Below are positions 5,799-31,900 of a stretch of 64,000 nt of DNA, piece by piece. The stretch's first letter is position 1, and every line of letters starts with the position of its first letter. A program made the translations under genes and the position numbers. The notes beneath the pieces are model-generated. The model did not search any database. It was not told where the DNA came from and worked only from the letters and a program-made list of their open reading frames with translations. Origin of the DNA: an uncultured Methanosarcinales archaeon (lineage in GTDB: Archaea; Nanobdellota; Nanobdellia; Woesearchaeales; GW2011-AR9); the NCBI GenBank assembly GCA_964552945.1, contig CAZKIP010000007.1, forward strand, positions 745-64,744, in the 5' to 3' direction.

Positions 5799-8700
5799 TC
5801 GCTCGGATTTTTAATACCTCTTTTTTTCAAAATTGAATCTTGACATTGTAAGGACACACATTTATCTGCTTTAGTTTGATCAAAGGTAGACAACTTAGTA
5901 TCCTGACAACTAAAATCTTCATACTGTGGCAAAGTTTCGCATTTTGTTAAAGCACTTGTTTCCCCACAATACTTTTGGAATCTCTTATCAACATCATTAT
6001 CAATCAAACAAAGATACTTCTTTATTTTCTTATATTCAGTTGTTCCAGTTACATATGCAGGATATCCTCCTTCAGCAAATCCTGGTTCAAAGAATCTACC
6101 AAGCAAACTAATAATTTCTCCTCTGAAATTATCCTTCCCTTGCATCACATAGCTAGAAATCCAATAATATAAAGCACTAGCATCATCTAAATTATTCTCT
6201 TTTAATTTAACAATGGCTTCCGCTTTATTTTGAACTAACTGATAATTATCATTCATAAAATCGTCATGCATCCCTATGGCTACAGCAACTTCTTCTTTTT
6301 GAAGTTGTAATTTTATTTTCTGAGTATGAGAGTTTTTCCCAAAGGAACTTTTTGGAACTAAATTGATTGCAGTAAAACAATTATCTCCTGCTCCAGGTTG
6401 TAATAACTCCACTTTAACATTTAAAGAGCCCACATTACCTTTTGAAGAACTCGTCGAAGGAACAGTTTTATATTCACATTTCCCGTTACTCTTCTCAGGA
6501 TTACCTAGAACTTTCTTAAATCTAAACTCACCTAATGTAAAAACAGCAGCATCTATATCGCTCTTAGTTAAATCAATGTCTCCGCCATAAGATAAATAGC
6601 CATTCTTATTAAGATCATACTTCTTACTATTTCCACCAGGAATAACAGAAACATCATTATTACCAACTCTTAGTTGATATTTGTTATTGCTCTGTTTCTC
6701 AAAAAAGAAAGGCATGTTCACACTTTTTGAAGTTGCTTCATCTGGCCAAGCAACAATCTCCAGTTCTTTCCCATTTCCACCACATCCTGCATCACTCACA
6801 GTATCTCTTCTAACAATCGTACCTACTTTACCACCACTGATCATGTCTGGAGTAACTCTTCCTAAACTTAAACTTGGTGCAACCGTACCTGTGTAACCTT
6901 CTCCCAACAAAACAATTTGTTTATTCTTACCTTTGTTATCGGTAACTTTCAAACAAGCTTTATCATTACCTATTCTAACATAAGGTTTCACAACTATTTC
7001 ATTATTTAAAACAAAAAGGTTAGGGGTCTTACAATCAACAAATTCTTCAGTTTCTTTGTTATAACAACGTAAGAAAGGATGTTCTAAATAAGATTGTCCT
7101 CCTTGAAATAATGTACTTAATTCAGGACAGAGATATCTTCCTGTAGCAAAGTCAACTTGACATTGTGCAAATTCCTTACCTGCTTTATGACTTAAAGGGA
7201 AATAAAATAACCCTCCCTGTGCAGTTTGATATCCTTCATCAAAACACTCTTTAGGGTCTTGACCTGATTCTAAAAATAATTCTAATTTTACATGATCATA
7301 TCTGAAATGACTGCTGATTTGTAGAGGATTTTTGTAAGGAATATCATATGGTTGTAATCTAGTAAGTGATCCAAATTTAGAGCCACTTTGAATTATTTTT
7401 TCCTTATCACCCTGGAATGGAGTATTCTGGTTACTTGCTTTCAAACAATCACATCCTTGTCCATCACAAGATTGATCTATTCCTTTATTTCCTAAATCTT
7501 CTACACCAATACATTTTAAGCTAGTTCTGTATCCTCTTAACCGACATCCTGGAATAATATCCATCCCTAAATTGTAAGTAAATTGAGGTAAACCTTGAAT
7601 TGGGTCAAATGAAGTGAATTCCCTGTTAGCAATTAGAGGAAGAACACTAGTTTTCATAGGTCTTCCATAAGCAGAATCTGTAAGGAAATCAAAATTTGAT
7701 GGAAAGTCATAACCTAAAGCAAACAAACACATTGATTGAGTAAATCCTTCAGAACCAACTCTAAATTGTTGTTCAGCAACAGCACCATAATCATCTTTCA
7801 AATCGCTGGTTGAACCTTTCAACCCTTCTGGGATCCCTTGTCTAAGAGCTTTAAAAAGTTGAGTTGCGTCTCCATCCGTAGGGTCTTTAAGTTCGGGTAC
7901 ATCATCAAATGTAACAGGTGAACATTGGTTTGTTAAAAGAGAAATTCCACTATAGATCCAACTACAAACTGTGTTGGTGAAAAAAGTTTTACAAGAACCA
8001 GCATCCTGAATTGCTGAATTCTTAGCTGCTAAAATACAATTTCTAAATTGAATTAATCCATTCTGTAACAGAGTTAATTGATCTTGGATTCTAGGTAAAC
8101 ACATGGTTTGCCAAGCTGGAACATAATCTCTAGGGTTAATTCTAGCAATTTTTTTATCTCCCACAAAATCGGAGATGTGATCTAAACCAAAAGCGGCGGT
8201 GAAATCTCTTCCACCATAATATCTCCATTCAGGATAGTAAGTTCCTTTATTTCTGCCAGATTCTCTATAAATAGAAGATTGTCGGTAACTCCATTCTTCA
8301 ACAACTTCATTTTCTTTTTTCAAAGCAACCCTAACACTTTTACTTTTCTTTAAAGGAACGTCTTGTTTCTCACATGCACATTGATATTTATCTCCAGTAT
8401 TTTCTTCCACAAAACAATCTTTCGTATAACCAGCAGTGAAAGTTGAAGCATCAACTTTTTTACCAACACTACTTCTTAATTTAAGACCTGAAAGGCTTTT
8501 CTCTTCCTTATAACATCCACCACCAGTCAAATAAGCACCAGATTTTTCATCCAATCTATAACCATCTGAAACTGCACGGAAACCAGATTTAGCTTTACAA
8601 ACATTTTTACAACTTTTCTCTTCAGCAACACAAGCAGGCCCGTTTAGATCTCCTTTAAGAGCCAAAACTTTGGATTTAGTTTGTCCAGGATTTAAGACAG

Positions 8701-11272: not shown

Positions 11273-13258
11273 TCATTTGATTATTTCAGGCGAAGATACC
11301 AAGGAACTTTTTCCTTCCAATCCACCTATAAAAGTATAAAGTTCATCTTCTGAAAGATCTTCTTCACCAATGGTGTGGAAAATTATTTTTTTACTTTCTT
11401 TCAAATCAGTCCAGGAAGTAGTCCAATTACCTTTGTAACCTGCAACAAAATCGTCATCTTCAAATACATTAATCTCTAATTGATATGCAAAATCAGCTTC
11501 AGCTAAAAATGATAAGGAGTTATAACCTTCCACTTCCACACCTTTCTTTGAAGAAACAAAGACGGATTCTAAAAATGGTTTACCTTCCACGTTTTTCTTT
11601 AATGAATTCAGGGTAATCATGTAAACTGCGTTCTCACTAAGTTCTTCTCCTGAGCTAATAGTAGTTCCATCTAAATTATATTTTAGAACTTCAATTTTTT
11701 CAACAGGAACTTCAAATAAAGGAGTTAAGTGGAGTTCAACTTGTTTCCCACTCTCTGAAACTACTCTTTTCCAATCTTGTAAATATCCTCCTTTTTCTCC
11801 TCTCAAAATTCCACCAACACAATAAGGAAAATTTCTCGTGAAACCTGCTTGGTAACCACTATCTGCAAAATCAAATTCGGTAGCTCCCATATCACATTGG
11901 TATTTCACACAAGTGAAACTCACATTAACATCTTCTAAAGGTTCAGAAAACTTTACTCCACTAAGTGGGCTATCAACGGTTTCCCATGTAAGAATGGTCA
12001 TTGGAAGTTTTTTATTTGAACAAAACAAATTGCTTGGAGGTAAATTAACTGAGTTTGGATCTCTAGCCACAATTACATTTTCCCTATTTGGCATATTTCT
12101 CTGCAAATGTACGGTAAAAGCTGTATTGAAAACAAAATCAGACCTTTGATCTCTCAATTGAACTAAGACCGGATAAGTTACATCATAAGTAAATTTCCAA
12201 TTTTGTAAACACACTTTTGAAAGAAGATCTGAACCACCCGTCATGCCACTCCTCATTTTTCCTCCAATGTTTGGAGTTACTTGAAAAGTAAAGGGATAAT
12301 TGTTATGATAACGGAAAGTTACCGTTAAATCTTCTTTTTGAAATTCATTTCCTACATCCCAATTATAATGATGTTTGTAATATGAAAATTCTTCAGGAAA
12401 TTCAACAACCTCTGTTCCTTTAACTTTAACTTGCGGAATGTTTACTCTCAACAAATCCTGCAAAGCCATCTTTGCCAAATTTACGTCCCACTCTTTCTCC
12501 TTACAGCTAACTTCAAATCCTGCTAAAGGTAGCCTTGGATGATCTAAAGAAAGTAAATCTTGTGTAAGATCTTCGAATTTGAGGGTGTTAACTTCCTGCT
12601 CAACAACCGCTTTAGCAGTGTCATATAATGATTTAAATCTAGTAGGCGACTCAGCATTATGGTTAATTACTTCCGTAACTAAATCTCCATGTTTATCTCT
12701 AATATCAATTTCCCAATGAACATTGAAAAGAACCCTACTTTCAACTAATTCTGTATCAGAATTTATTTCACTCTTTTCTACAAAATCATAAATTTCACCA
12801 TAAGCCTGCTCACTAAACACACATTCACTTAAATGTGCTTCAAGGTAAGTATCAACCCGTTCTTTAATTTCCAACAAAGAAGGAATTCTCAAATTGGAAC
12901 CATATGCCCAATAAGGAACAACGTTTACAGGAGTTATCTTTAAATGAGAACTCTCATCATTAACAATTTCTAAAGGTACGTCAATGTAACCTCCTTGTAA
13001 AGCTATTTTTTCTAACGCTTCGTCTCCCACTCCCTTAATACAAGAAACGATGAATTCTTCAACAGAACTTTTTTCGGTAGGGATTATTTTTGCAGGAATA
13101 AAATTTACCGCTTCTTTTTGTACCAAGATAACTAGTACTAAAACTAAAACAATAAAAATTCCCAGAATTATGAAAACCGTTACCTGTCCTTTTCCAGAGG
13201 GAGCGAACTTGCTTAAAATACTGCCTATTCTAAGTCCATCTTCCCTCTTTTTGTACAT
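11273..13258 (-). CDS. Membrane-anchored 661-aa extracellular protein, first gene of the surface cluster.
   Basis: N-terminal TM anchor VTVFIILGIFIVLVLVLVILV followed by a large non-repetitive ectodomain. It lies 18 bp upstream of the giant gene on the same strand. Confidence 0.55.
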   Translation of the reverse strand: MYKKREDGLRIGSILSKFAPSGKGQVTVFIILGIFIVLVLVLVILVQKEAVNFIPAKIIPTEKSSVEEFIVSCIKGVGDEALEKIALQGGYIDVPLEIVNDESSHLKITPVNVVPYWAYGSNLRIPSLLEIKERVDTYLEAHLSECVFSEQAYGEIYDFVEKSEINSDTELVESRVLFNVHWEIDIRDKHGDLVTEVINHNAESPTRFKSLYDTAKAVVEQEVNTLKFEDLTQDLLSLDHPRLPLAGFEVSCKEKEWDVNLAKMALQDLLRVNIPQVKVKGTEVVEFPEEFSYYKHHYNWDVGNEFQKEDLTVTFRYHNNYPFTFQVTPNIGGKMRSGMTGGSDLLSKVCLQNWKFTYDVTYPVLVQLRDQRSDFVFNTAFTVHLQRNMPNRENVIVARDPNSVNLPPSNLFCSNKKLPMTILTWETVDSPLSGVKFSEPLEDVNVSFTCVKYQCDMGATEFDFADSGYQAGFTRNFPYCVGGILRGEKGGYLQDWKRVVSESGKQVELHLTPLFEVPVEKIEVLKYNLDGTTISSGEELSENAVYMITLNSLKKNVEGKPFLESVFVSSKKGVEVEGYNSLSFLAEADFAYQLEINVFEDDDFVAGYKGNWTTSWTDLKESKKIIFHTIGEEDLSEDELYTFIGGLEGKSSLVSSPEIIK

Positions 13259-14713: not shown

Positions 14714-15625
14714 TTATGGGTTCAGAACCCTTTCTCTGTAAAGTCTAAAGAAATTTGCTACAACCTTCTCAATTCTTTGTTTCACTAGAGGATCTTCTAA
14801 AACTGCGGTAACTTCGGCATGTGAAGTAGAGTTAGTACCATCCTCTTTTGTTGAGTTGGTTATTAAACTCATCCCAACACAATTCATGCCCCTATTTCTT
14901 GCAGCTTCCACTTCAGGGATAGTTGACATCCCCACTGCTTGTAATCCCATATTCCTGAAAGCAATAACTTGCGCTTTAGTTTCATAAGTAGGACCAATTA
15001 CCGCACCATAAGATCCTAGATGCATCTCTCCAGCTTTCATTAATAAAGCAGTTAATTGTTCATCATAAGCATCATGCATTGGAACAAATCGTTGTAAATT
15101 TTCTTGGTCAATAGTTTTAAAATCCATCATTCTTCCAGATAAAGGACAAGGAATACCCAAAGACATATGGCTTGATAAAGCCATTAATTCTCCTACCTTA
15201 TAACTTGTATCTAATCCTCCTGCAGCATTGGTTACAAAATAATTTGCCACACCTAAATTAGCCATTACATTGACTGCAAAAACGGTCTCTAAAATCCCTT
15301 GATTGAATGGTTTATCAACAACTTCATAAAAATGAGTCCTTCCTTGTAAACCAATAATTGGTACCCCTTCTAATTCTCCAAGGTGTAGATTACCAGCATG
15401 ACCTTTTACTGTAGGTACAGGAAATCTAGGAATTTCACTATAAGGAATTATTCTAGAATTATCTATTTTATCAGCCAATCCTCCCAATCCAGAACCTAGA
15501 GTTAAAGCAAATAAAGGCTTAAAATCACCCATCTGTTCTTTTAAGTATTGAGCTGCTTCATCAACATGAGCTTCATAATTACGTTGAAAATCCAATGCGT
15601 CAGTGAGAATTTTTAATGAGTCCAT
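14714..15625 (-). CDS. Purine nucleoside phosphorylase (trimeric PNP/MTAP family).
   Basis: The motifs GSGLGGL, VKGHAGNLHLGELEGVPIIGLQGRTHFYE and MSTIPEVEAAR match the PNP family-1 signatures. Confidence 0.8.
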   Translation of the reverse strand: MDSLKILTDALDFQRNYEAHVDEAAQYLKEQMGDFKPLFALTLGSGLGGLADKIDNSRIIPYSEIPRFPVPTVKGHAGNLHLGELEGVPIIGLQGRTHFYEVVDKPFNQGILETVFAVNVMANLGVANYFVTNAAGGLDTSYKVGELMALSSHMSLGIPCPLSGRMMDFKTIDQENLQRFVPMHDAYDEQLTALLMKAGEMHLGSYGAVIGPTYETKAQVIAFRNMGLQAVGMSTIPEVEAARNRGMNCVGMSLITNSTKEDGTNSTSHAEVTAVLEDPLVKQRIEKVVANFFRLYRERVLNP

Positions 15626-17228: not shown

Positions 17229-17512
17229 TTTAAAACCACCTTACACTCTCCATAAACACATTTAATCTCTCCTTGACCACAATCTGCCGTTTCCGGAACA
17301 CATTCTGTAGTACAAATCATTCCTTTACAATCAGGAGCGTTTTCTTTATTAACTGCATCTTTAGCATGGCAACAAGTTGCCTTTACACAATCTGAATCTA
17401 AGGAACATTTTTTTTCCGGAGCTATTGAAACATTCTCCGTTGTACAAGAAATTAATAAAAAAGAACCAACTAATAAAAACAAAATCATTCCTCTTTTTGA
17501 AACATCCATCAT
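17225..17512 (-). CDS. Small secreted cysteine-rich protein (11 Cys in about 72 mature residues).
   Basis: Signal peptide plus the Cys pattern (CSLDSDC, CC, C..C, C...C). There is a 4-bp overlap with gatD upstream and with the VIT gene downstream. Confidence 0.5.
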   Translation of the reverse strand: MMDVSKRGMILFLLVGSFLLISCTTENVSIAPEKKCSLDSDCVKATCCHAKDAVNKENAPDCKGMICTTECVPETADCGQGEIKCVYGECKVVLK

Positions 17513-18795
17513 TCTACAATATCTTCTTCATAAGATAAACTGTCGTTAATTTCTCCTCTTAAATTTTTCCCAATTAATTTTTCAACTTCCTCTTTTTTAT
17601 AATTGGCTAACAACCAAGATAATTTAACTAAGGTAGTATTGGCTAGCATATCTTTTCCTGAAATAACACCTAATTCCAAAAGATCCCTCCCTTTGTCATA
17701 AACGTTCATGTTAACCCCACCAAAAATACATTGAGTGGTCATTACAACAACACATCCTGAATTGATAACTTTCTTAATAGCAGGATAAATTTTTTCATGG
17801 ATTTTACAAAGTTCATTTGGAACTTGCCCCGGCGTATGTCCTAGGCCAGTTCCTTCGATAACTAACCCTTTGTAACCTTTAAAGAATTCGAATTGTTCAG
17901 GAAACATGTTAACATGAACTTTCAATAAACCAACTTTTTCTTCCAACTTTGGTTTTATTACAAGTTTGTTGTTTTTTGGAAAATCCTTTTGCTCAAAAAC
18001 AACTTTACCATCACTATAACCTACCCTAGCAATGATATTGGTATTTACAGCTTTAAAAGCATCCCTTCTTGAAGAGTGAAGTTTGTACGTTTTTGCTGCA
18101 GGTAGAATTTCTGCAAAGTCATCACTTGAAGAACCATGCATACAAATTGCCACTCCGGAAAAATCTGATTCTGCAATTAATTTAGCTGCACTAATAAGAT
18201 TCATTCCTGCATCACTACTTCCTCTATCCGAAGATCTTTGAGCCCCTACTAAAATAATTGGAATTGGTGAAGATTCTACTATAAAAGAAAGACCTGCTGC
18301 GGCTACAGCCAAATTATCTGTACCTATGCCAATGATAATTCCTTTAACTCCTTTCTTTACATATTTTTCAATGGTTTCCGCTATCAGAGAGATGTGAGCA
18401 AACCTTAGATCATCACTCCACATTTGAGAAATTAATTCTGATTCAACATTGGCTATTTTATTTAGCTCTGGGAACATGGCAAGCAATTCCTCAGGGCCGA
18501 AATTTGAAGTAACTCCTCCAGTTCTATAATCAACCTTAGAAGCGATGGTTCCTCCTGTGTGTAATATGGCTATTGTTGGTAATTCAGGATTTTTTGGAAT
18601 CTCTTGAGAGGTTTTTGTTAGGGGTTTATTTTTTTCAATTATTGTCATTTCTTTAATTTCTTTTTTTGGAAAACCCACGTTGTAGCCATTGTCTAGTTTA
18701 AGTAAGACAACTTCTTTTTTTGGGCTTGGGATTAGAATACCTTCTACTTCTTCCTTCTTGGTAGAAATTTTAACTTTATCTCCTGGTTCGGACAT
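17509..18795 (-). CDS. gatD: Glutamyl-tRNA(Gln) amidotransferase subunit D (GatD).
   Basis: The archaeal GatD N-terminal domain is GDKVKISTKKEEVEGILIPS...LKLDNGYNVGF. The asparaginase-type motifs are ILHTGGTIASKV and LVGAQRSSDRGSSDAGMNL. The size is 428 aa. Confidence 0.8.
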   Translation of the reverse strand: MSEPGDKVKISTKKEEVEGILIPSPKKEVVLLKLDNGYNVGFPKKEIKEMTIIEKNKPLTKTSQEIPKNPELPTIAILHTGGTIASKVDYRTGGVTSNFGPEELLAMFPELNKIANVESELISQMWSDDLRFAHISLIAETIEKYVKKGVKGIIIGIGTDNLAVAAAGLSFIVESSPIPIILVGAQRSSDRGSSDAGMNLISAAKLIAESDFSGVAICMHGSSSDDFAEILPAAKTYKLHSSRRDAFKAVNTNIIARVGYSDGKVVFEQKDFPKNNKLVIKPKLEEKVGLLKVHVNMFPEQFEFFKGYKGLVIEGTGLGHTPGQVPNELCKIHEKIYPAIKKVINSGCVVVMTTQCIFGGVNMNVYDKGRDLLELGVISGKDMLANTTLVKLSWLLANYKKEEVEKLIGKNLRGEINDSLSYEEDIVE

Positions 18796-19197: not shown

Positions 19198-19327
19198 ATT
19201 ATTATATTGAGTTAAATATTATATAAATTCTCCTAAACACTCCTCCCCCTCCTCAATTTCCACAACCAGTTCCTAAAACTTTATAAATATTCTACTTCCT
19301 CAGCAAAGCAAATAGAGGTAATACAAA

Positions 19328-20734
19328 ATGGAAACAACTAACGACTACAAAGTAAAAGATATCACCCTAGCAGACTGGGGAAAGAAGGAAATTAAAATCG
19401 CTGAAAAAGAAATGCCAGGACTAATGGCTCTTCAAGAGAAATATAAAAACCAACCACTCAAAGGAGCAAAAATTATGGGCTCCCTTCACATGACCATCCA
19501 AACAGCAGTCCTAATAGAAACCTTAGTGAAACTGGGAGCGGAAGTTAGGTGGGCTTCCTGTAACATTTTCTCAACGCAAGATCATGCCGCAGCAGCCATA
19601 GCCGCTCAAAACATCCCGGTCTTCGCTTGGAAAGGAGAAACATTGAAAGAATACTGGTGGTGTACCAAACAAGCTTTAACCTTCCCAGATGGTTCCGGTC
19701 CAGACTTAATTGTAGATGATGGCGGAGATGCTACAATGATGATTCATAAAGGAACTGAAATTGAAAGTGACCCTGAACTTCTAGAGAAAGATTACAGCAA
19801 AGAAGGAGAGGATTTCAGAGAATTAATTTTATCATTAAAAGAAACTTTTCAAGAAAATAAAGATAAGTGGAAAAAGGTAGCTGAGAAAGTTAAAGGAGTT
19901 TCTGAAGAAACAACAACAGGAGTGCATAGATTGTACCAAATGCATGAACAAGGAAAACTCTTGTTCCCAGCAATTAATGTAAATGACTCTGTTACCAAAT
20001 CAAAATTTGATAATTTATATGGGTGTAGAGAATCTCTTGTAGATGGAATTAAAAGAGCTACAGATGTCATGCTAGCAGGAAAAGTAGCTGTTGTAGCTGG
20101 TTATGGAGATGTGGGAAAAGGTTGTGCTCAATCTTTGAAAGGGTATGGATGCAGAGTTATCATAACTGAGATAGATCCAATCAATGCTTTGCAAGCAGCC
20201 ATGGAAGGGTTTGAAGTTAAGAAAATGGACTCAGCTGTTAAAGAAGGAGACCTTTTTGTAACCACTACTGGAAACACTGACATTATTGTTCAAAAACATT
20301 TCGAAGCTATGAAAGATCAAGCCATCGTTTCTAACATTGGACATTTTGATAACGAAATTGATATGGATTGGTTGGATAACAAATCTGGCGCAGTTATGGA
20401 GGAGATAAAACCACAGTATGATAAGTACACTCTTAACGGAAAAGAGATTTATATTCTTGCAAAAGGAAGACTTGTCAATTTAGGTTGTGCTACTGGTCAC
20501 CCAAGTTTTGTAATGAGTAACTCCTTTACTAATCAAGTTTTGGCTCAGATAAAATTGTGGGAGAACAAACATGAAGTAGGCGTTACAGTTCTACCAAAAG
20601 AATTAGATGAAGAAGTTGCTAGGTTACATCTTGAAAAAATAGGTGTTGAATTAGAAGAACTTACCGATAAACAAGCTGCTTACTTAGGGATTAAAAAAGA
20701 AGGTCCTTACAAAGCAGAACATTATAGATATTAG
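19328..20734 (+). CDS. ahcY: S-adenosyl-L-homocysteine hydrolase, long form with the roughly 40-aa insertion typical of bacterial and plant enzymes.
   Basis: [19 protein letters not shown], the NAD-binding [13 protein letters not shown], and the insertion segment between HKGTEIE and [10 protein letters not shown]. The size is 468 aa. Confidence 0.9.
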
Positions 20735-20744
20735 AGGTATAAAG

Positions 20745-22043
20745 ATGAAAATTGGAATTATTGGCGGATCTGGATTATACAAAATTGATGAATTAGAAAA
20801 TTCTAAAGACATAGAAGTTAATACCAAATATGGTACACCTTCTTCACTTTTAAAAGTTGGAACAATTAAAGGAATAGAAGTAGCGTTCATTGCTAGACAT
20901 GGAAGAGAACATACAATTCCTCCATCTAAAGTTAACAATAGGGCCAATATACAAGCTCTAAAAGATTTTGGTTGCACCCATATCTTGGCTACAACCGCTT
21001 GTGGAAGTTTGAAAAAAGAAATTGGAAGAGGCCATTTAGTTATCCTAGACCAATTCATCGATTTTACTCGACATAGAAACATTACTTTTTACGATGAATT
21101 CAAACCAGGAGAACACGGGCACACACCCATGGCAACACCTTTCGCAGAAGAATTAAGAGAACTATTAATTCAAAGTTGTGAAGAACTAAATTTAGAATTT
21201 CATAAAAAAGGAACAGTAGTTACAATTGAAGGTCCTCGTTTCTCCACAAAGGCTGAAAGTAAAATGTTTGGTTTATGGGGTGCAGATGTGATAAACATGT
21301 CCATTGCTCCTGAGACAGCTCTCGCTAACGAATTAAAAATACCTTATGCAGCTGTAGCCATGAGCACCGATTACGATTGTTTGTTTGACGACGTTCCTCC
21401 AGTAACTCATGAAGAAGTTATGAAAGTTTTCAGTGAAAATGTGAGTAAGGTAATTAATTTGCTTGTAAAAACTATTCCTAAAATTTCTTTGGAAACTATT
21501 GAGGAAAATGAAGAGGAGTATTACGATTTGAAAAGTTCCATCAGAACAATTCCTAACTGGCCCAAGGAAGGAGTAATGTTTAGAGATATTACAACCTTGA
21601 TAAGTAACCCAGAAGCTTTCAGTTATTCCATCAAAAAATTAAAAGAACAATATCAAAATAAAAACATTACAAAAATTGCGGGGATTGAATCGAGAGGATT
21701 TATTTTCGGCGCTCCCTTAGCTAAGGAAATGGGCATCCCTTTTATTCTAATTAGAAAGAAAGGAAAACTTCCTTCTGAAACTGTTTCTCAAGAATATGAA
21801 TTAGAGTATGGAACTGATGTAATAGAATTACATAAGGACGCAGTTTCTCCTGCAGATAACGTTTTAATTGTAGATGATTTATTGGCAACCGGAGGAACTA
21901 TGAAAGCTGCTTGTCAACTTGTGGAGAAATTGCAAGGAAAAGTTGCAGGGTTATCTGTTGTCATAGATCTTCCAGATTTGAAAGGCAAAGAAAAATTAGC
22001 CAATTATGAGATATTTAGTTTAGTAGAATTTGCAGGAGAATGA
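20745..22043 (+). CDS. Fusion protein: 5'-methylthioadenosine (purine nucleoside) phosphorylase N-terminal domain plus adenine phosphoribosyltransferase C-terminal domain.
   Basis: The N-terminal half (MKIGIIGGSGLY..ARHGREHTIPPSKVNNRANIQALKDFGCTHILATTACGSL) aligns with MTAP. The C-terminal half (NWPKEGVMFRDITTL...VLIVDDLLATGGTMKAA) is a canonical APRT PRPP-binding domain. The ORF is continuous over 432 aa. Confidence 0.85.
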   Translation: MKIGIIGGSGLYKIDELENSKDIEVNTKYGTPSSLLKVGTIKGIEVAFIARHGREHTIPPSKVNNRANIQALKDFGCTHILATTACGSLKKEIGRGHLVILDQFIDFTRHRNITFYDEFKPGEHGHTPMATPFAEELRELLIQSCEELNLEFHKKGTVVTIEGPRFSTKAESKMFGLWGADVINMSIAPETALANELKIPYAAVAMSTDYDCLFDDVPPVTHEEVMKVFSENVSKVINLLVKTIPKISLETIEENEEEYYDLKSSIRTIPNWPKEGVMFRDITTLISNPEAFSYSIKKLKEQYQNKNITKIAGIESRGFIFGAPLAKEMGIPFILIRKKGKLPSETVSQEYELEYGTDVIELHKDAVSPADNVLIVDDLLATGGTMKAACQLVEKLQGKVAGLSVVIDLPDLKGKEKLANYEIFSLVEFAGE

Positions 22044-22654: not shown

Positions 22655-23689
22655 TTATTTACTAACTTTCTCAATAGCTTTCCTAATCTCTTCCTCGGCA
22701 GTGAGAGGTTTCTTCTTACCAACTTCCATCTTTGGAGCAACAACAACAGGAGAAGTAGTTTCTTTCTTTTCTTTATGAGAAATTTTCCATGTTTTATCTT
22801 TTATTTTTCCAATAACAGAATCTAAATCGTAACTTGGAGGCTCTGGTTTCCACAATAAAGTTTCATTCAATCCATCTTCTTGAGATCTGGGTAAAACATG
22901 AATTGACAAAGTCCCATCTGGGTTATCATCAGATTTCCCTGACTTAAGAATAATGTTAGTTCCTTGAACTCCCAATCCTTCAAAAACAGCTGTAGCAGCA
23001 AATGAAGCTACAAAAAAAAGATGGCTGGCACTTTCTACAGAAAGTTTGTCAACATTTTCTTCTTCTTTGGAATATATTTCCATGTGACCTTTGACAACAC
23101 CTTTCTCTGGAAGAATGCAAAGAGCTTTTTCATCTTCATAGATTACTTTACCTTTTTTATCAGATAAAAAATCTGGTCTCTCTCCCTTACCTTGATGCCA
23201 AGAAGCGGGATTTCTTCCGAAATGATTATTCATCATTATTGGCATATTGTTTGCCAACATATTTTGTTGTTCAGTTGTTAAGGATTCCTTTCTTTTATTT
23301 AACCAGAAATTGAAAAAACCATCTCCCTTCTCTCTAGGGAAAAAGTGAATTAAAAAGTGAGGTGATTGTTGTCCAGCAACTCCGCCATTGGCAACAAAAA
23401 CGTTTATTCCTGTCGAAACCATCCCATCTTTTATTGCTTTTGAAAGACCTGGAATCATTCCAAAATAATGTTTAAATTCATCTGCAGGAATGTAAGGCAT
23501 GATTGGATAATGTTCTTTAAGCATTACAATTGTATGTCCCTTTATAGCGGGATAGATGTCAAGAACTGCTAGAACTTTATCATCTTCAAAAACTTTTTTT
23601 CCTTCCATCTCTCCGGAGATGATTTTACAAAAGATACATTGCTTCTTTTGTTCAGCTAGTTGGGCTTTTATCTCTGGTGTTAGTTGCAT
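22655..23689 (-). CDS. Tandem HIT-like (histidine triad superfamily) protein with a degenerate triad.
   Basis: The first domain begins CIFCKIISGE...DIYPAIKGHTIVMLKEH like Hint, but the triad region is SPHFLIHFFPR with the middle His replaced. The second half repeats the fold and ends LSIHVLPR. Confidence 0.55.
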   Translation of the reverse strand: MQLTPEIKAQLAEQKKQCIFCKIISGEMEGKKVFEDDKVLAVLDIYPAIKGHTIVMLKEHYPIMPYIPADEFKHYFGMIPGLSKAIKDGMVSTGINVFVANGGVAGQQSPHFLIHFFPREKGDGFFNFWLNKRKESLTTEQQNMLANNMPIMMNNHFGRNPASWHQGKGERPDFLSDKKGKVIYEDEKALCILPEKGVVKGHMEIYSKEEENVDKLSVESASHLFFVASFAATAVFEGLGVQGTNIILKSGKSDDNPDGTLSIHVLPRSQEDGLNETLLWKPEPPSYDLDSVIGKIKDKTWKISHKEKKETTSPVVVAPKMEVGKKKPLTAEEEIRKAIEKVSK

Positions 23690-25366: not shown

Positions 25367-26290
25367 TTATTTTTTCTTACTTTTTTCAACTTGTTTAGTA
25401 AGCTTTAACTTTTTGATTAGCTCTTTGTATCTATTCCTAATAGTTACTTCGGTAACTCCTGCCACATCGGCAACTTCTCTTTGAGTTCTTTTTTCACCAT
25501 GGATTAATGAAGCCACATAAAGTGCAGCTGCAGCAATACCTGTTGGACCCCTTCCTGAAGTTAATTCAATGTCTCGGGCCATTTCAAGTATTTCTACAGA
25601 TTTAGATTGAGTTTCAGCAGATAATTTCAAAGCTGAGGCAAATCTAGGGATATAATCTGCTGGATTTGAAGGTTTTATACTAATTCCAAGTTCTCTGGTA
25701 ACAAATCTATAAGTTCTACCAATTTCCTTTTTCTCAATTCCAGAAGCTTCACCCATTTCATCTAAAGTTCGAGGGATTTCGTGTCTTCTACAAGCAGCAT
25801 ATAAAGCTCCTGCAATAACTGATTCCATTGAACGACCTCTAACTAAACCCTTCTGAACTGCTAAACGATATATTCGAGCTGCTTCTTCTTCAACTGATCT
25901 TGGCAATCTTAAAAATGAGCTAACTCTCTTTAATTCTGCTAAAGCTACCTTTAAATTTCTCTCAATAGCTGTGCTAATTCTAATATTCCATTTTCTTAAT
26001 CGAAAGAACTTATCTCTTTCCCTATCAGAACCAACTTTATAGATATCGGCAGTGGTTCCTACTTCAGTGCCTAAACCCTTATCAAAGGACGTATGGGAAG
26101 ATGGTGCCCCAGTTCTTCTCCTATCTGCTCCTTTATCATCTTCAAAACTTCGCCATTCTTGCGAGAAATCAACCATTCTATCTTCAATTACTAAACCGCA
26201 AGTTCTACAAATAGTCTCGCCTTTCTCGACATTTCTAAAAATGTCTTTACTTCCACATTCAGTACATTCTTTTAAGGTTTTTCGTAACAT
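25367..26290 (-). CDS. tfb: Transcription initiation factor IIB (TFB).
   Basis: N-terminal Zn ribbon CTECGS...CRTCG, two cyclin-fold repeats, and the C-terminal segment TIRNRYKEL. The start was reassigned to the ATG at 26290, which is preceded by GGAG. The track's TTG at 26317 is unlikely. Confidence 0.9.
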   Translation of the reverse strand: MLRKTLKECTECGSKDIFRNVEKGETICRTCGLVIEDRMVDFSQEWRSFEDDKGADRRRTGAPSSHTSFDKGLGTEVGTTADIYKVGSDRERDKFFRLRKWNIRISTAIERNLKVALAELKRVSSFLRLPRSVEEEAARIYRLAVQKGLVRGRSMESVIAGALYAACRRHEIPRTLDEMGEASGIEKKEIGRTYRFVTRELGISIKPSNPADYIPRFASALKLSAETQSKSVEILEMARDIELTSGRGPTGIAAAALYVASLIHGEKRTQREVADVAGVTEVTIRNRYKELIKKLKLTKQVEKSKKK

Positions 26291-26326
26291 CTTTATTTCT
26301 CCAGAATCCACCACCAAATAGTTAAA

Positions 26327-27427: not shown

Positions 27428-28894
27428 GTGTTAATTTTAGTTGGCAGTGCAACAGCTGCATTAGAGACTTCTGATGAAGTAATTCTCAATGCAGATTATT
27501 CTAGATTCACAGATGAGGATCAAAAAACTATTGCCGTTGAAGGAACTCTCTCTATTAATAATACAGGAGATGTAGATGAAAAAATTAAACTTTCTGTGTC
27601 AAACCTTCCTTCTGATTACAATTCTTCAGATACTTCTGAAACAACAATTGAAGCAAAAAGTACAAAAGAAGTTAAGTTCACAGTAAATATTCCTCATGAA
27701 GAAGGCCCTGATAAAAAAGAAATTGGAGTTTTAAAAATTCTTAATTCAGCTGGAAGTGAAATAAAATCTCTTAAACTTTTCCAAATATCAAAACAAATGC
27801 TTGAACTTGATGAATTAGAAGTAAAATATACTGCTAAAGATGATGATAGTGAAACTGATGAATTTGGAAATGATAAGGACGAATACTCTTTAGATAAAGA
27901 TGTTAAGCCAGGAACTAAAATTGAACTCCATTTTTCTCTAGAAAACCTTTTTGATGGAAGTTATGATGATGACGGAGAGTTAGAAGACGTAACTATAGAA
28001 ATTGAATCTGATGATAATGACCTTTTCTCAGAAGAATTTGAAGAGATTTATGAAATAGATAACATAGATGCTGATCGTAAAGAAACTTTTTCCGTTGATT
28101 TTATTGTTAACGAAGAAGCAGATGAAGACAATTTTGAACTTGATATAACCATTAAAGCTGAAGATGGACAAAAGATTGATTATAAGATTAAAAAGAAATT
28201 AAACATTGAATTAGGAAGAGAATCAGATGATGTTAAATTAACAAAGTTTGAAATTAAACCAGAGAAGATTACTATATGTGATTCGGAATATACTTTTGAT
28301 GTGGAAATAAAAAATCTTGGAACAAGTTCACAAAGATATGCTGGAATTAGCATTTACAATAAAGATTTAGATATTAATGACAACTTTGCAAATATTAAAT
28401 TAGATGAGTTTTCTGATAGCGATAATAGTTGGAGTAAAACCATCACTCACACAATTAGTAAAGATACTAAATCTAAATCCTATCCTTTAGATATTCGTAC
28501 TTATGTTCAGAAAAGTGAAGTTATGGACATTGTTCAAAAGCAATTGGTCTTTTTGAAATGTGATAAAGAAGAGAGTAAAACAGACACTAGTGGAACCACT
28601 GATAAGAAAGATGAAGTTAAGAAAGATACTTTAAAAGGAATTACTAAAAATACTTCAGTAGATTCCAAAAAATCTGGAACAATTACTAATACTATTACTT
28701 CTAATAAAGAAGGAAGTAAAGCCAATACAGAAGCAACAAAAACTTCTGGTTCAAAAATTTCTTCAGCAGCAATTGTAAAAACTGTAGAAGACCCATATAG
28801 TAAGGCAGATATTTTTGTAGCAATTTTGTTAGTTGCGATTGCCCTTACATTAATCATTATCATTACTTTTTTGATGATTTTACTTAAGCCTTAA
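27428..28894 (+). CDS. Highly acidic surface protein with an N-terminal hydrophobic leader, a Thr/Ser/Lys-rich stalk and a C-terminal TM anchor.
   Basis: The D/E-rich body has CARDB-like beta-strand motifs (FSVDFIVNEEAD, TFDVEIKNLGTSS). The C-terminal TM is IFVAILLVAIALTLIIIITFLMILL. The start is uncertain (GTG at 27428 or CTG at 27410). Confidence 0.5.
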   Translation: MLILVGSATAALETSDEVILNADYSRFTDEDQKTIAVEGTLSINNTGDVDEKIKLSVSNLPSDYNSSDTSETTIEAKSTKEVKFTVNIPHEEGPDKKEIGVLKILNSAGSEIKSLKLFQISKQMLELDELEVKYTAKDDDSETDEFGNDKDEYSLDKDVKPGTKIELHFSLENLFDGSYDDDGELEDVTIEIESDDNDLFSEEFEEIYEIDNIDADRKETFSVDFIVNEEADEDNFELDITIKAEDGQKIDYKIKKKLNIELGRESDDVKLTKFEIKPEKITICDSEYTFDVEIKNLGTSSQRYAGISIYNKDLDINDNFANIKLDEFSDSDNSWSKTITHTISKDTKSKSYPLDIRTYVQKSEVMDIVQKQLVFLKCDKEESKTDTSGTTDKKDEVKKDTLKGITKNTSVDSKKSGTITNTITSNKEGSKANTEATKTSGSKISSAAIVKTVEDPYSKADIFVAILLVAIALTLIIIITFLMILLKP

Positions 28895-28976: not shown

Positions 28977-31900
28977 ATGAAAACAAGAAAAATTTCAATT
29001 ATTCTGTTTGTAATAATTGCTGTTTTATTAACTGCAAAGGCAGCCCTAGGTGCTGTTGTAATTAATGAAGTAATGCCAGATCCTGGCGCATCGTCTGACT
29101 CAGATGGTGAATATATCGAACTTTACAATGATGGAGCATCTACCACCAATATTGAAGGATGGGAAATCTCCGATGCAAATTCTGCACACACTATTGCTAA
29201 TGGTTCTCCCTTGGAAATTGCTGCTGGAGAATTCCTAGTTCTATGTAGTAATGATGATAAGGCAGCAAATGGAGACATTGGTTGTGCATACGAATACGCT
29301 TCCACTATCAGCTTAGTTAATGCTGGAGATACAATTGAATTAAAAGACACAAGTGCTACTTCAATTGATAAAGTAGTTTATACTGCTGCTTCATTTCCTT
29401 TCACAGCTGGAACTTCTATGGAATTAAAACATCATTCTTTAAATAACACCAATGCTTCAAATTGGAGAGCTTCAACCTCTACCATGAGTAATGGTGACAA
29501 AGGAAGTCCAGGTAAGAAAAATAATCATGCACCAACATTTGATGTTTCTGATGATACAATTCTTGAAGACGCTGGTTTGAAGAAGTATGACTTACATGCC
29601 TCAGTAAGTGATCCCGAAGACTCAAAAAGCGACTTGAAGTTCGTTCTTGATTCGCAATCAAATACCTCACTTGTATCTTGTAGCATCAATGCTACAGATG
29701 GACACAATTTAGAATGTAATACTAAAAAGGACCAATCCGGCGAGTCTACCTTAAACTTAACTGTAACAGATACTTATGGAGATTCAACCAAGGATTCCTT
29801 TAAGATAACTGTAAGCGCAGTTAATGATAAACCTGTAATCACTAAAGCTGACAATTCTACAGCTACAGAAGGTCTTGCTTTTACAAAAACAATTACCGTA
29901 ACTGATGTTGATAATAACCAAAGTGAACTTGGAATTAATCTTGACAAATCTACTGTTGATGGCAAAAGTTTCACAAGCCTTGGCTGGACAAGTGCCGGCC
30001 TAGAAATTACTGGAACTCCTAAAGCCTCCGGTGATATGAAAGTTAGTGTAGTTGCAAAAGATAAAGCAGCAGATTCAGATGCTAAAGAATTTACCTTATC
30101 TGTAAAGCCTGCTCTTGAAATTAACTCCCTTACAATTGATGAAGAATTGTGGGTTGGAGAAGAAATTAATGCATCTCCTGGAGAAGGATTTTCAGTTGAT
30201 ATTGGTTTCATAAATAATTATAATAAAGTACTTGGCCATGTAAAAACAGAAGCAAAAGTTAGTGTAACTGGCTTTGAAAACATGCCTTACAAAGGTGAAT
30301 GTGCTGGAGTAGGTTGTAACAAAGGTTACTGGGCTTTAGAAGAAGGAGAAAGTGCAGATGACTCTTTCACTTTCCAAGTTCCATATTCTGTTAGTGCAGA
30401 TACTTTTGACTTAACCATAAGTGTTAGTTATGATAATTTCTGGAGTAAACTATTCCCTTGGTGGGTTTCAGGTTACCTCCATGAACAGAAAATAACTTTC
30501 AAAGTTGAAAAGAAAGAAGCTGAAGTTCACCTAAATAGTGCAGAGTTAAGTGATGAAGTACTTACTTGTGCCAGAGAACCAACTCTTGATTTAGATCTTG
30601 TAAACACTGGAAAGAACGCTGTTTCTTCAGAAGTTTTAATTTTCGATCAAAAACCTAAAGAAGGATCTTTTGACAAAAAAACAGGAACTTTCAAGGAATT
30701 TGCAAGTAAACCAGAACTTAATTTATCAATTCTTATTGATAAAGATGGTAAATTCTCACAAGGATTATCCTTTGAAGATTCTACCAATGGTAAACATAAC
30801 CTCTATGTTTACATTGTAAATCCTTACTTTAATAGTGATGAAAAATTCATTGGTGATTCAGCAGAACTTGAGTTTGAAGTAGATGATTGTTTGAATGTTG
30901 AAGCTATCGAAGAAGAACTTAAGACAAATAAAGATTCATTGAGTTCCACATCAGTTGATTTATTTGAAACTGATGAAGATGATGAATACATTTACATCTA
31001 TGAAGATATGGATTATGAATCTGTATTAAAATTTGAAATAGATGATCAAGATGATGAAATTATCAAATGCTCAATTGATCCAGTAACTGCAAAATTGACC
31101 TGTGCTCCACCCATCTTATTAATGGCTGGAACATCACTTCTTGAAATAATAATTGAACAAGGAAGTTCAGATTTTACTGAAGAAGTAGAAGTAGTTGTTG
31201 CAAACACTCTGGAAGTAACTAAAGTTCTTGTTGATGCAGAAGAAATAAGTGAAAGCGCAGAAACTAAAGGCACCAACCCTATGGAAGAATTTAGTGTTGA
31301 ATTAACTGTTAAGAACCATTTAGGCCATGCAGTTACCGGTGTTTCCGCAACTTTATCTTCAAATCTTTTCAGTAAAGATTTAGAAAGTAAAAGCAAGAAC
31401 ATTGCAGCTGATCAAAGTGAAACTTTAACTTTTAAAACTACTCTTCCAGAGAATACAGTTGCTGGTAAATACCCAGTAAGCATTTCAATCTCAGGAAAGG
31501 ATTTCAAAGATAACACTATTACTCAAAAAGAGTCATTTACTTTTGATAAAGTTGTTGAACAAGAATCTGCTGATTTAAAAATTTCCAAAGTTACTTTAGA
31601 CAACAAGGAAGTTACCTGTAAACAGGAAACGACTGTAACTGTTGACTTAGTTAATCTTGGAAACAATGATGAAGATGATTTAGTATTAAGTGTTAAAGGT
31701 GGAAAAGAAACTTTTTCAACTGAAGAAAACGATGTAGATGAGATTCTTAAGAATGGAGGAACTCTTTCACATGTTTTCAAATTACCAACTTCAAACTTAT
31801 CATCTGGAACAAACGATCTTACTTTAGAAGTTAGCTACCGAAATGGTGCAGCTTCTGTAAGCAAGAAAATTGATTCAATTGAAAAGAAAAGTTGTATCAA

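Follow-up and report, generated by a model that had tools for sequence, protein, structure and literature searches.

A predicted bifunctional methylthioadenosine phosphorylase-adenine phosphoribosyltransferase fusion encoded next to ahcY in uncultured archaea

Introduction

5'-Methylthioadenosine (MTA) and 5'-deoxyadenosine are inevitable by-products of SAM-dependent aminopropyl and aminocarboxypropyl transfer and of radical-SAM reactions. In mammals, free adenine comes mainly from S-methyl-5'-thioadenosine phosphorylase (MTAP, or MtnP) and is salvaged by adenine phosphoribosyltransferase (APRT, or Apt). Each enzyme is familiar as a stand-alone protein, the former from the human (1CB0), Sulfolobus (MTAPII; 2A8Y), and Aeropyrum (1WTA) structures and the latter from the type I enzymes 2DY0, 4MB6, and 5B6H and human 1ORE. 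Solved MTAP homologues are trimers or hexamers, solved APRT homologues are dimers, and among the solved structures no chain holds both domains. Some archaeal nucleoside phosphorylases of the MTAP family use adenosine.

The pentose-bisphosphate pathway of Thermococcus (TK1895, the ADP-R1P kinase TK2029, and AMP phosphorylase) resembles the system considered here in that it likewise combines an archaeal nucleoside phosphorylase with a PfkB protein and AMP phosphorylase. In T. kodakarensis, the adenosine phosphorylase TK1895 supplies ribose-1-phosphate to the PfkB-family R1P kinase (PMC9700705). However, the Thermococcus pathway degrades the ribose moiety and has no described APRT fusion, whereas the PfkB partner of the proteins discussed below looks adenosine kinase-like. 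A full-text literature search, which included PMC8437039 and had subscription-only journals outside its coverage, returned no description of an MTAP-APRT (MtnP-Apt) fusion.

Here, we describe a gene in which the two enzymes are joined. In our view, the protein is probably a bifunctional MTAP-APRT through which adenine from SAM by-products is converted back to AMP, having arisen from an mtnP-apt gene pair, with co-expression and co-localization rather than a tunnel as the effect of fusion.

Results

The fusion gene (positions 20745 to 22043, forward strand) lies in a 64-kb stretch of DNA, the whole of which we refer to as the window, and consists of a single continuous ORF of 432 amino acids plus stop. 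The original prediction, that one polypeptide comprises an MTAP and a complete APRT, was borne out, with both halves passing curated equivalog models. The N-terminal half (aa 1 to 250; positions 20745 to 21494, forward strand) scores 286.0 bits against the NCBIfam model TIGR01694 (equivalog cut-off, 274.85; aa 2 to 245) and 162 bits against Pfam PNP_UDP_1 (aa 2 to 244). It aligns end-to-end with human MTAP (1CB0; 263 bits over aa 1 to 248), an MTA-specific enzyme to which it is closest. The MTAP motifs cited in the original prediction were located at residues 8 to 11 (GSGL), 50 to 64 (ARHGREHTIPPSKVN), and 83 to 89 (TTACGSL).

Across 146 fused homologues, the equivalents of human R60, H61, H65, A94, G96, H137, F177, D220, and D222 are invariant, and those of S178 and M196 are each kept in 145. 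The phosphate-binding set, which we take to comprise human T18, R60, H61, T93, A94, and T197, corresponds to S9, R51, H52, T84, A85, and S186; both Thr-to-Ser replacements are conservative, the first being found in nearly all of the fused homologues and the second in all 146. The 6-aminopurine base-binding set (human F177, S178, D220, and D222) corresponds to F166, S167, D209, and D211 and includes the adenine-specific Asp pair, in place of which 6-oxopurine purine nucleoside phosphorylases (PNPs) have residues of the Asn/Glu type. The stand-alone MTAPs share their phosphate-, ribose-, and adenine-binding residues with the N-terminal half of the fusion, which differs from them in the added C-terminal domain; in addition, the window protein has His, and most relatives have Trp, at the 5'-alkylthio pocket position of human V233. 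On this assignment, the MTAP half would prefer MTA or 5'-deoxyadenosine over adenosine and would assemble as a trimer or hexamer.

The C-terminal half (aa 261 to 432; positions 21525 to 22040, forward strand) is a type I APRT domain, scoring 233.1 bits with TIGR01090 (apt; cut-off, 185.85; aa 262 to 428), 232.1 bits with NF002634 (cut-off, 170), and 64 bits with Pfam Pribosyltran (aa 297 to 425). Alignments with the solved APRTs 5B6H, 4MB6, and 2DY0 (about 199 bits; about 190 to 199 bits with human 1ORE included) are full length, without gaps in the motifs. In the 146 homologues, FRD, SRGF, RKxGKLP, EYxLEYG, and DDLxATGGT show no or almost no variation, as do the SRGF arginine (R317) and the catalytic flexible-loop residues E354 and Y355; the adenine-binding residues F279, R280, and D281 fall within FRDIT (residues 279 to 283). 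The PRPP-binding residues, which the original prediction had left to closer alignment, are in place: the loop VDDLLATGGT (residues 376 to 385) is intact, and D377, D378, L379, A381, and G384 are invariant in all 146. All of the signature motifs of stand-alone type I APRTs recur in the fusion, but its C-terminal half lacks a separate start codon, with Tyr standing in place of the Met, and about 10 acidic residues tether it to the MTAP domain. This half would make AMP from adenine and PRPP and is predicted to be a homodimer.

Two divergent proteins, P0126 and P0128, carry a degraded APRT half (101.7 bits with the apt model, against the cut-off of 185.85; PRPP motif, VGEVLATGET), which lends some color to the idea that one half of such fusions is a catalytically dead pseudo-enzyme with a regulatory or scaffolding role. 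For the window protein we consider this very improbable, given that the catalytic motifs of both halves are intact in it and in the 146 relatives and that equivalog cut-offs are passed. Given the conservation of catalytic residues across the 146 fused proteins, both halves are under purifying selection.

Many relatives have a single in-frame stop between the two genes, such that an error in one base could mimic a fusion. Nevertheless, there is next to no likelihood that the continuous ORF is an artifact of assembly, of a frameshift, or of a missequenced stop codon. Three records that were assembled independently, namely a JGI 62-kb contig and two from Logan SRA assemblies, carry the whole gene with 100% identical DNA, which speaks directly against an artifact; in addition, fused genes occur at 27 genome loci and in 120 protein clusters, and the apt Met has been replaced in most fused forms. 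Both Pfam domains were present in 120 of the 120 best database clusters, which range from 100 to 59% identity and from 395 to 700 aa in length (most, 417 to 469 aa). In total, at least 140 fused sequences, from uncultured archaea, are present in public databases. The arrangement had been described as not a standard annotated one; this is half right, in that more than 140 fused sequences are already public, but every source that names the proteins gives only "S-methyl-5'-thioadenosine phosphorylase" or the single orthology number K00772. By sequence, then, the MTAP-APRT fusion is a real variant that combines two ordinary, known enzymes and has no named family.

Among the 80 genome loci examined, the 27 fused ones are limited to Woese-, Pace-, and Nanoarchaeota-type contigs; those without a DPANN-type label comprise one 2.2-kb contig and some "uncultured Methanosarcinales" contigs that share DPANN synteny. 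One fused protein (L006) has an N-terminal extension of 340 aa with an HGDFHSAN motif, which matched no Pfam family and did not resemble the APH-family kinase of the window (E = 0.31).

Forty-seven of the 80 loci were scored as split, and in 42 of these, mtnP is followed by apt within 500 nt; the other five are four Asgard loci, with apt upstream, and one truncated locus (L074). Carriers of the adjacent pair include Desulfobacterota, Nitrospirota, Magnetococcales, CPR bacteria, and some DPANN archaea. The split pairs of Desulfobacter vibrioformis DSM 8776, Desulfospira joergensenii DSM 10085, and others match the fusion in gene content and order and are 50 to 61% identical to the window protein over both halves (69% for the pair at locus L003), yet they encode two polypeptides rather than one. 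The stops of adjacent pairs are real (TAA, TAG, or TGA), with an ATG 0 to 17 codons further on, for example, ...K*MDLKSKIRT, where the window reads ...EEEYYDLKSSIRT. In the split relatives, mtnP and apt often share a frame and are separated by nothing more than a stop, or sometimes a stop plus an ATG, from which we infer that the fusion arose through loss of the stop codon between neighboring mtnP and apt genes, the adjacent split pair being the likely ancestral state.

Full-length tblastn matches in cultured Desulfobacterota at first sight resembled bacterial fusions, but stop-to-stop ORF analysis showed these to be split pairs whose in-frame stop had been bridged by tblastn. Likewise, although the two genes share a frame at 40 of the 47 split loci and in 39 of the 42 adjacent pairs, in-frame pairs are favored when loci are ranked by best tblastn segment, and we draw no conclusion from this excess; the few loci ranked on the MTAP half alone (L069 to L080) showed mixed frames and mixed arrangements. 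The neighbors of bacterial split pairs (a thioredoxin-like protein, glycosyltransferases, and a NERD nuclease) are not conserved, the exception being a SAM hydroxide adenosyltransferase upstream of the pair in Desulfospira.

The linker of the window protein, TIEENEEEYY (aa 251 to 260; positions 21495 to 21524, forward strand), was delimited by its low pLDDT, its hypervariability among fused proteins, and comparison with split relatives. It presumably derives from the old stop codon and intergenic codons, with the start Met of apt having become Tyr (YYDLKSS); most fused forms, the window protein among them, have Y, F, or I at this position. Linker length ranges from 11 to 58 aa among 147 fused proteins, a count that includes about nine residues of the APRT N terminus, and the sequence is hypervariable. 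Structure prediction gave two confident domains (mean pLDDT, 91, with most of the MTAP domain above 90), with aa 251 to 257 as the sole segment with a pLDDT below 50; the pTM was 0.60.

The fused forms are not monophyletic: neighbor-joining (NJ) bootstrap trees with Fitch parsimony required at least five fused/split changes in 200 of 200 replicates. These are rough distance trees rather than maximum-likelihood trees, the clade of the window itself was supported in only 103 of 200 replicates, and on some branches the change may have been either fusion or fission. Locus L003 looks like a secondary split within the fused clade of the window. With so many transitions, the selective advantage of being fused may be small or nil, and the frequent switching and variable linker fit a near-neutral alternative to a translationally coupled gene pair.

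MTAP-APRT is one of several combinations in which an enzyme that releases adenine is joined to APRT. We also found APRT-MTAP fusions in the reverse order (P0123 and P0125), MtnN (Pfs) nucleosidase-APRT fusions (P0157, P0165, and P0242), and triple PfkB-MTAP-APRT fusions with an adenosine kinase-like PfkB (P0015 and L008). These share the same metabolic logic, both halves pass equivalog cut-offs, and all come from uncultured sequences. Their different domain order or partner indicates independent fusion events, which, in the manner of a Rosetta stone, support a functional coupling between adenine producers and APRT.

As originally noted, the fusion gene directly follows ahcY (positions 19328 to 20734, forward strand), at a distance of 10 nt, and this linkage is kept in relatives L002, L003, L008, L011, L015, and L020. 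The ahcY product, a 468-aa S-adenosyl-L-homocysteine (SAH) hydrolase, scores 638.3 bits with TIGR00936 (equivalog cut-off, 497.6) and 495.7 bits with Pfam AdoHcyase, and its NAD-binding domain is present (AdoHcyase_NAD, 267.5 bits). A TATA-box-like element read directly from the sequence (tttataaata; positions 19280 to 19289, forward strand), 39 to 48 nt upstream of the ahcY ATG, is likely the promoter of an ahcY/mtnP-apt operon; inspection of the 10-nt gap before the fusion gene revealed no comparable element. Each gene is preceded by a Shine-Dalgarno-like GAGGT (positions 19315 to 19319 and 20734 to 20738, both forward strand), the second of which overlaps the ahcY stop codon TAG (20732 to 20734) and stands 6 nt from the ATG of the fusion gene. 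The two genes are presumably co-transcribed as one operon. Beyond the fusion, and outside the enzyme proper, lies a convergent gene for a HIT-family nucleotide hydrolase/transferase (positions 22655 to 23689, reverse strand; Pfam HIT, 70.6 bits), a homologue of which also adjoins the fusion in L004, L005, L006, L008, L011, and L020.

Elsewhere in the window, we recovered the other genes that had been named: a separate, 6-oxopurine-type PNP (positions 14714 to 15625, reverse strand; PRK08202/NF006054, 244.7 bits against 218; TIGR01697, 216.8 against 197.1), the AMP phosphorylase of the archaeal AMP/pentose-bisphosphate pathway (39674 to 41146, reverse strand; TIGR03327, 562.1 bits against 535), a dUTPase (38894 to 39319), and a UMP-kinase-type AA_kinase (45690 to 46367); the thymidine kinase amounts to a partial TK domain match (57196 to 58248). 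An organism that lives on salvaged nucleosides would fit these genes and the published DPANN surveys (PMC8407392), but 64 kb is insufficient as proof. Nowhere in the window did we identify an MTR-1-phosphate enzyme (such as MtnA), a PRPP synthase, or an MTA-producing enzyme. The window also lacks pfkB, as judged by phmmer with three PfkB queries against every six-frame ORF of 80 aa or longer.

In relatives, a pfkB gene recurs at this locus. The order ahcY-pfkB-mtnP-apt is found in L003, L011, and L020 (with another order in L015), and apt, pfkB, and mtnP are clustered in the Asgard loci. Among solved structures, the linked PfkB is most similar to the adenosine kinases 3UBO (158 bits) and 4E3A (154 bits), followed by a match of 80 bits; with the NCBIfam R1P kinase model, it scores 118 bits, far under the cut-off of 500 and as one of several weak matches.

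Discussion

Taken together, the domain content and gene context suggest the following route. The MTAP domain would phosphorolyze MTA, and probably 5'-deoxyadenosine too, to free adenine and a (5-substituted) ribose-1-phosphate, and the type I APRT domain would condense the released adenine with PRPP to yield AMP. The product of the presumably co-transcribed ahcY would clear SAH, the other SAM by-product, such that the locus as a whole may return the adenine of spent SAM to the nucleotide pool. On loss of the stop codon, the old intergenic codons would have become a short, disordered, acidic tether, and the main effect of fusion would be obligatory 1:1 co-expression and co-localization rather than a structural tunnel.

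A different substrate can be envisaged for the N-terminal domain. If its chief activity were phosphorolysis of the adenosine that AhcY releases, the ribose-1-phosphate could enter the pentose-bisphosphate (AMP phosphorylase) pathway while the APRT domain recaptured the adenine. The position of ahcY immediately upstream and apparently in the same transcript, the AMP phosphorylase within the window, the repeated linkage or fusion of PfkB to MTAP-APRT (together with its weak R1P kinase match), and the precedent of TK1895 in T. kodakarensis (PMC9700705) are all consistent with such a route. We nonetheless regard it as unlikely. The N-terminal domain scores above the MTAP equivalog cut-off and most resembles a human enzyme that is specific for MTA, a separate PNP is encoded within the window, and the linked PfkB is nearest to adenosine kinases. 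In relatives, an adenosine kinase-like PfkB would take adenosine straight to AMP, leaving MTAP for MTA. In this regard, the original prediction that AhcY supplies adenosine to the MTAP half is not favored by our data: with pfkB between ahcY and mtnP in relatives and an N-terminal half of the MTA type, adenosine is probably not the main substrate.

A second point of interpretation is whether adenine is channeled, as the original prediction had proposed for a fused APRT. In its fullest form, this would mean that ahcY, an adenosine kinase-like pfkB, mtnP, and apt make up a dedicated "spent-SAM to AMP" module, with the four linked in DPANN archaea and the last three clustered in Asgard archaea, and that some DPANN lineages have condensed it stepwise into double (MTAP-APRT) and triple (PfkB-MTAP-APRT) fusions. 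Joining a trimeric domain to a dimeric one would force such proteins into a defined multi-enzyme assembly, a D3 hexamer or something larger, where adenine would pass from site to site without bulk equilibration and would thereby be kept in ultra-small cells; this would be a natural trimer-by-dimer assembly with true channeling. The oligomeric states of the homologues, the persistence of the fusion in many lineages, the independent adenine producer-APRT fusions of several architectures, and the value that channeling would have in a tiny cell prone to losing free adenine by diffusion can all be read in its favor. Even so, we consider it quite doubtful. The disordered, hypervariable linker (pLDDT below 50), which varies from a few to about 47 residues and shows no conserved interface signal, the pTM of 0.60, and the frequent interconversion of fused and split states (at least five changes) argue against it, and bacteria keep the pair split. 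Moreover, fast-diffusing small molecules are rarely channeled by enzyme proximity alone. Obligatory co-expression and co-localization, with no tunnel, therefore remains our preferred account of what the fusion does.

Our findings overturn no existing knowledge: the two enzymes are textbook material, as is the way in which metabolism couples them. The family is, in our opinion, a clean natural case of gene fusion by stop-codon loss, with fused and split forms coexisting among close relatives and with convergent fusions alongside, and it could be used to ask whether fusing consecutive enzymes gives a kinetic benefit. The recurrent ahcY-pfkB-mtnP-apt linkage, in turn, points to one coordinated route by which the adenine of all major SAM by-products may reach AMP. 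There is also a practical consequence. Because the fused proteins carry only MTAP names or K00772, reconstructions of Woese-, Pace-, and Nanoarchaeota based on gene names or KO numbers will report adenine phosphoribosyltransferase as missing, an annotation gap that understates purine salvage in the very organisms whose host dependence is judged by such gaps.

Results

The ORF at 20745..22043 (plus strand) is uninterrupted over 432 codons and begins 10 nt after the stop codon of ahcY, itself a 468-codon ORF (19328..20734, plus strand; TIGR00936, 638 bits against a cutoff of 497.6). Pfam places PNP_UDP_1 at aa 2 to 244 and Pribosyltran at aa 297 to 425, and by the NCBIfam equivalog models the N-half is S-methyl-5'-thioadenosine phosphorylase (MTAP; TIGR01694, 286.0 bits against 274.85, aa 2 to 245) and the C-half as adenine phosphoribosyltransferase (APRT; TIGR01090, 233.1 bits against 185.85, aa 262 to 428). 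With a continuous ORF and both equivalog models passed, the original prediction of a single-ORF MTAP-APRT protein holds, and the motifs it named were all found in place. By every membership test applied in silico, both halves are ordinary examples of their families.

The exact protein is recorded on six contigs, and the 1299-nt gene is 100% identical at the DNA level in all three records compared (a 62-kb JGI contig and two independent Logan SRA assemblies). The same fusion was sought in relatives and found: both Pfam domains occur in all 120 of the best clusters from a 5.8-billion-protein database (100 to 59% identity; 395 to 700 aa, most 417 to 469). That the ORF is an artefact is vanishingly improbable, given the DNA identity across three assemblies and the two-domain architecture of all 120 clusters. 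Where the homologues bear a name, it is only "S-methyl-5'-thioadenosine phosphorylase," from Woesearchaeota or Nanoarchaeota.

The N-half (aa 1 to 248) aligns with human MTAP (1CB0, 263 bits) and also with the archaeal MTAPs 2A8Y, 1V4N, and 1WTA. What we take to be the functional residues of human MTAP were transferred through the 1CB0 alignment (human numbering) and checked in 146 fused homologues. R60, H61, H65, A94, G96, H137, F177, D220, and D222 are invariant, and S178 and M196 are each kept in 145 of the 146; the T93 position is Thr or Ser, that of T18 is Ser in nearly all, and that of T197 is Ser in all. The D220/D222 pair is the hallmark of an enzyme acting on 6-aminopurines (adenine). 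That this half is mainly an adenosine phosphorylase we consider unlikely. The C-half aligns end to end with the solved APRTs 5B6H, 4MB6, and 2DY0 (about 190 to 199 bits), and its FRD, SRGF, RKxGKLP, EYxLEYG, and DDLLATGGT motifs vary little or not at all among fused homologues. The PRPP-binding residues, on which the proposed fusion hinged, are present on closer alignment, and both halves look catalytically competent. Among solved structures, none was found with both domains in one chain. AlphaFold2, given an alignment of 58 sequences, produced a model with a mean pLDDT of 91.1 and a pTM of 0.60, in which pLDDT falls below 50 only at aa 251 to 257. In the prediction, then, two well-ordered domains are joined by a flexible linker that does not fix their relative orientation.

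Scanning GTDB with a single genome for each species gave 80 loci, which stop-to-stop ORF analysis sorted into 27 true fusions, 47 scored as split (mtnP and apt as two ORFs), and 6 incomplete. The fusions lie on contigs labelled Woese-, Pace-, or Nanoarchaeota or "archaeon," save for some labelled "uncultured Methanosarcinales," which yet share the same GatD/HIT synteny, and one 2.2-kb contig labelled Bacteriovoracaceae. At 42 of the 47 split loci, apt lies downstream of mtnP at a distance of no more than 500 nt; the remaining five comprise the truncated locus L074 and four Asgard loci, in which apt precedes mtnP. All Desulfobacterota matches are adjacent split pairs, including those of the cultured Desulfobacter vibrioformis DSM 8776 and Desulfospira joergensenii DSM 10085, and such pairs also occur in Nitrospirota, Magnetococcales, Halioglobus, CPR bacteria, and a dozen DPANN genomes.

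At the split junctions, a real TAA, TAG, or TGA is followed by an ATG 0 to 17 codons on (e.g., LEVK*MDLKEKI and KKVS*MEHIKSKIRT). The fused junction reads ...EFDLKSTIRT in most close relatives of the window and ...EEEYYDLKSSIRT in the window itself; on this comparison, the former apt start Met is replaced in most fused forms, the window's included. The linker spans 11 to 58 residues between conserved domain ends, about 9 of them from the APRT N terminus; in the window's clade it is acidic and of low complexity, and its sequence is not conserved. The simplest reading is that the fusion arose when two tightly abutting genes in one frame lost the stop codon between them. The two genes share a frame at 40 of the 47 split loci and in 39 of the 42 adjacent pairs, a count that we do not use as evidence because best-tblastn-segment ranking favours in-frame pairs, so that the excess may be partly a ranking bias. 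In same-frame split loci such as L016, L017, L021, L024, L030, L032, L033, and L035 (junction near 6741 to 6760), the genes are often separated by a stop codon alone or by a TAA directly followed by ATG. Separately, some fused homologues (proteins P0017, P0022, and P0025 and locus L020) carry a Cys-rich linker insert (NSCNPSCCCHQNCEEEE...), which could be a metal- or disulfide-forming element and resembles the Cys-rich C-terminal tails of Nitrospirota stand-alone MTAPs (...ECKCKK*).

In a neighbor-joining tree built from both halves concatenated (69 taxa, 419 columns; a rough distance analysis), bacterial sequences are all split, and the fused forms of DPANN make up several clusters with split forms between them; the split locus L003 nests among the window's nearest fused relatives. 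Fitch parsimony gave 6 changes on this tree and 5 to 11 over 200 bootstrap trees (never fewer than 5), against a mean of 21.5 with shuffled states; the count could be too high if genes moved horizontally or single stop codons were misread in sequencing. The fused/split state is thus heritable, yet it has switched repeatedly.

Other architectures came to light when 1.84 billion representatives at 50% identity were searched exhaustively and the matches were scanned for domains. Two proteins have the reverse order, APRT-MTAP (P0123 and P0125), and the opposite order points to an independent fusion event; at locus L084, a reverse-order fusion (3001-4560) is preceded by a UDP-glucose dehydrogenase and followed by a PfkB gene (4675-5607). 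A 684-aa protein (P0137) is a candidate fusion of MTAP to a complete UDP-glucose/GDP-mannose dehydrogenase, the family of that upstream neighbour. Four proteins (P0157, P0165, P0242, and P0271) join MtnN (the MTA/SAH nucleosidase, Pfs) to APRT, both halves exceeding NCBIfam equivalog cutoffs; the logic is the same, with a hydrolytic adenine-releasing enzyme. P0124 is a bacterial-type MTAP-APRT with a long linker, P0141 a PfkB kinase-MTAP, and P0015 an N-terminally truncated PfkB-MTAP-APRT of 700 aa that is 71% identical to the window protein. The triple fusion is complete at locus L008, in one 780-codon open frame (4921-7260, plus strand) whose MTAP part lacks its own start codon. The best solved relatives of the PfkB domain are adenosine kinases (3UBO, 158 bits; 4E3A, 154 bits; next match, 80 bits). 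P0126 and P0128 have a degraded APRT half (apt, 101.7 bits, below the 185.85 cutoff), the PRPP loop reading VGEVLATGET in the former and shortened in the latter; they may be pseudoenzyme derivatives of the fusion. In one Woesearchaeota genome (L006), the fusion ORF is extended at its N terminus by a further 340 aa (4936-5955, plus strand) that include a kinase-like motif, HGDFHSANIF; this extension matches no Pfam model and is not related to the APH-family protein of the window.

In DPANN relatives, the order ahcY-pfkB-mtnP-apt is found at L003 (1459-5453), L011, and L020, and pfkB-ahcY-fusion at L015; apt, pfkB, and mtnP cluster at four Asgard (Hod-/Promethearchaeota) loci (L069, L075, L077, and L080, about 4200-6750). 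No PfkB gene lies anywhere within the 64-kb window, where ahcY runs directly into the fusion; judging by these gene orders, the window has lost pfkB from between them. In Desulfospira joergensenii, a SAM hydroxide adenosyltransferase (SAM to adenosine and methionine; L042, 4706-5869, plus strand) stands immediately upstream of the split pair, another SAM/adenosine link.

The contig is archaeal; it carries TFB (25367..26317), GatD (17509..18795), PAC2, LonB, and L10e, its GC content is 31 to 36%, and the exact gene with its neighbours recurs in relatives labelled Woese-, Pace-, or Nanoarchaeota. Adjoining the fusion is a convergent gene for a 344-aa HIT hydrolase (22655..23689, minus strand), kept there in six related loci. 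Its HIT domain covers only aa 26 to 121; the C-terminal two-thirds carries no annotation and may include a degenerate second HIT-like repeat. Elsewhere lie an APH-family phosphotransferase (47422..48378, minus strand; Pfam APH, 74.7 bits), a superfamily that includes 5-methylthioribose kinase, and two giant ORFs of 1825 aa (5777..11254, minus strand) and 1614 aa (28977..33821, plus strand), neighboured by a 661-aa ORF with bacterial Ig-like domains (186..2171). Several mid-size window ORFs (e.g., 11273..13258 and 27428..28894) have no Pfam match.

Discussion

In established biochemistry, SAM-dependent methylation gives SAH, and MTA and 5'-deoxyadenosine come from aminopropyl or aminocarboxypropyl transfer and from radical-SAM reactions. 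AhcY would split SAH into adenosine and homocysteine; the MTAP domain would convert MTA (and probably 5'-deoxyadenosine) to adenine and a ribose-1-phosphate derivative; and the APRT domain would turn adenine and PRPP into AMP, also pulling the reversible phosphorolysis forward. In relatives, the adenosine-kinase-like PfkB would round off the set by converting adenosine to AMP. A TATA-like tttataaata (19280-19289) lies upstream of ahcY, and GAGGT motifs precede both start codons; together with the 10-nt gap, these suggest that ahcY and the fusion form what appears to be one transcription unit.

Fusion would ensure 1:1 expression and proximity of MTAP and APRT. Substrate channelling, as originally proposed, is argued against by a linker that is disordered and hypervariable and by how often the state has switched between fused and split; both suggest instead that fusion is a nearly neutral substitute for translational coupling. 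A defined higher-order particle or real channelling, which could be added to this explanation without excluding it, is quite improbable. We consider it likely that the protein, taken as a whole, returns SAM-by-product adenine to AMP through 1:1 coexpression with no structural channel.

The original prediction also saw an organism living on salvaged nucleosides. The 6-oxopurine-type PNP (14714..15625), AMP phosphorylase (39674..41146), dUTPase, and UMP-kinase-type AA_kinase that it listed are present; its thymidine kinase is a protein whose TK-domain match is partial. With these genes, and with de novo nucleotide pathways annotated in only about 35% of Woesearchaeota genomes in one survey (PMC8407392), such a lifestyle is plausible, although 64 kb cannot demonstrate it. 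A long RelA/SpoT homologue (53840..55726, minus strand; HD_4, RelA_SpoT, TGS, and ACT) is no novelty on an archaeal contig, since RelA/SpoT occurs in about 42% of Woesearchaeota (PMC8407392).

Full-text literature searches found no description of a covalent MTAP-APRT fusion, of its origin from a conserved mtnP-apt operon, of convergent adenine-releasing enzyme/APRT architectures, or of the ahcY-pfkB-mtnP-apt module; databases already contain fusion sequences, naming the MTAP half only. Metabolic coupling of MTAP and APRT is textbook knowledge. The fusion is real, conserved, and uncharacterised, and the mechanism itself is no surprise. Its practical weight lies in the annotation of DPANN purine salvage, and it offers a tidy natural system for the study of enzyme fusion.
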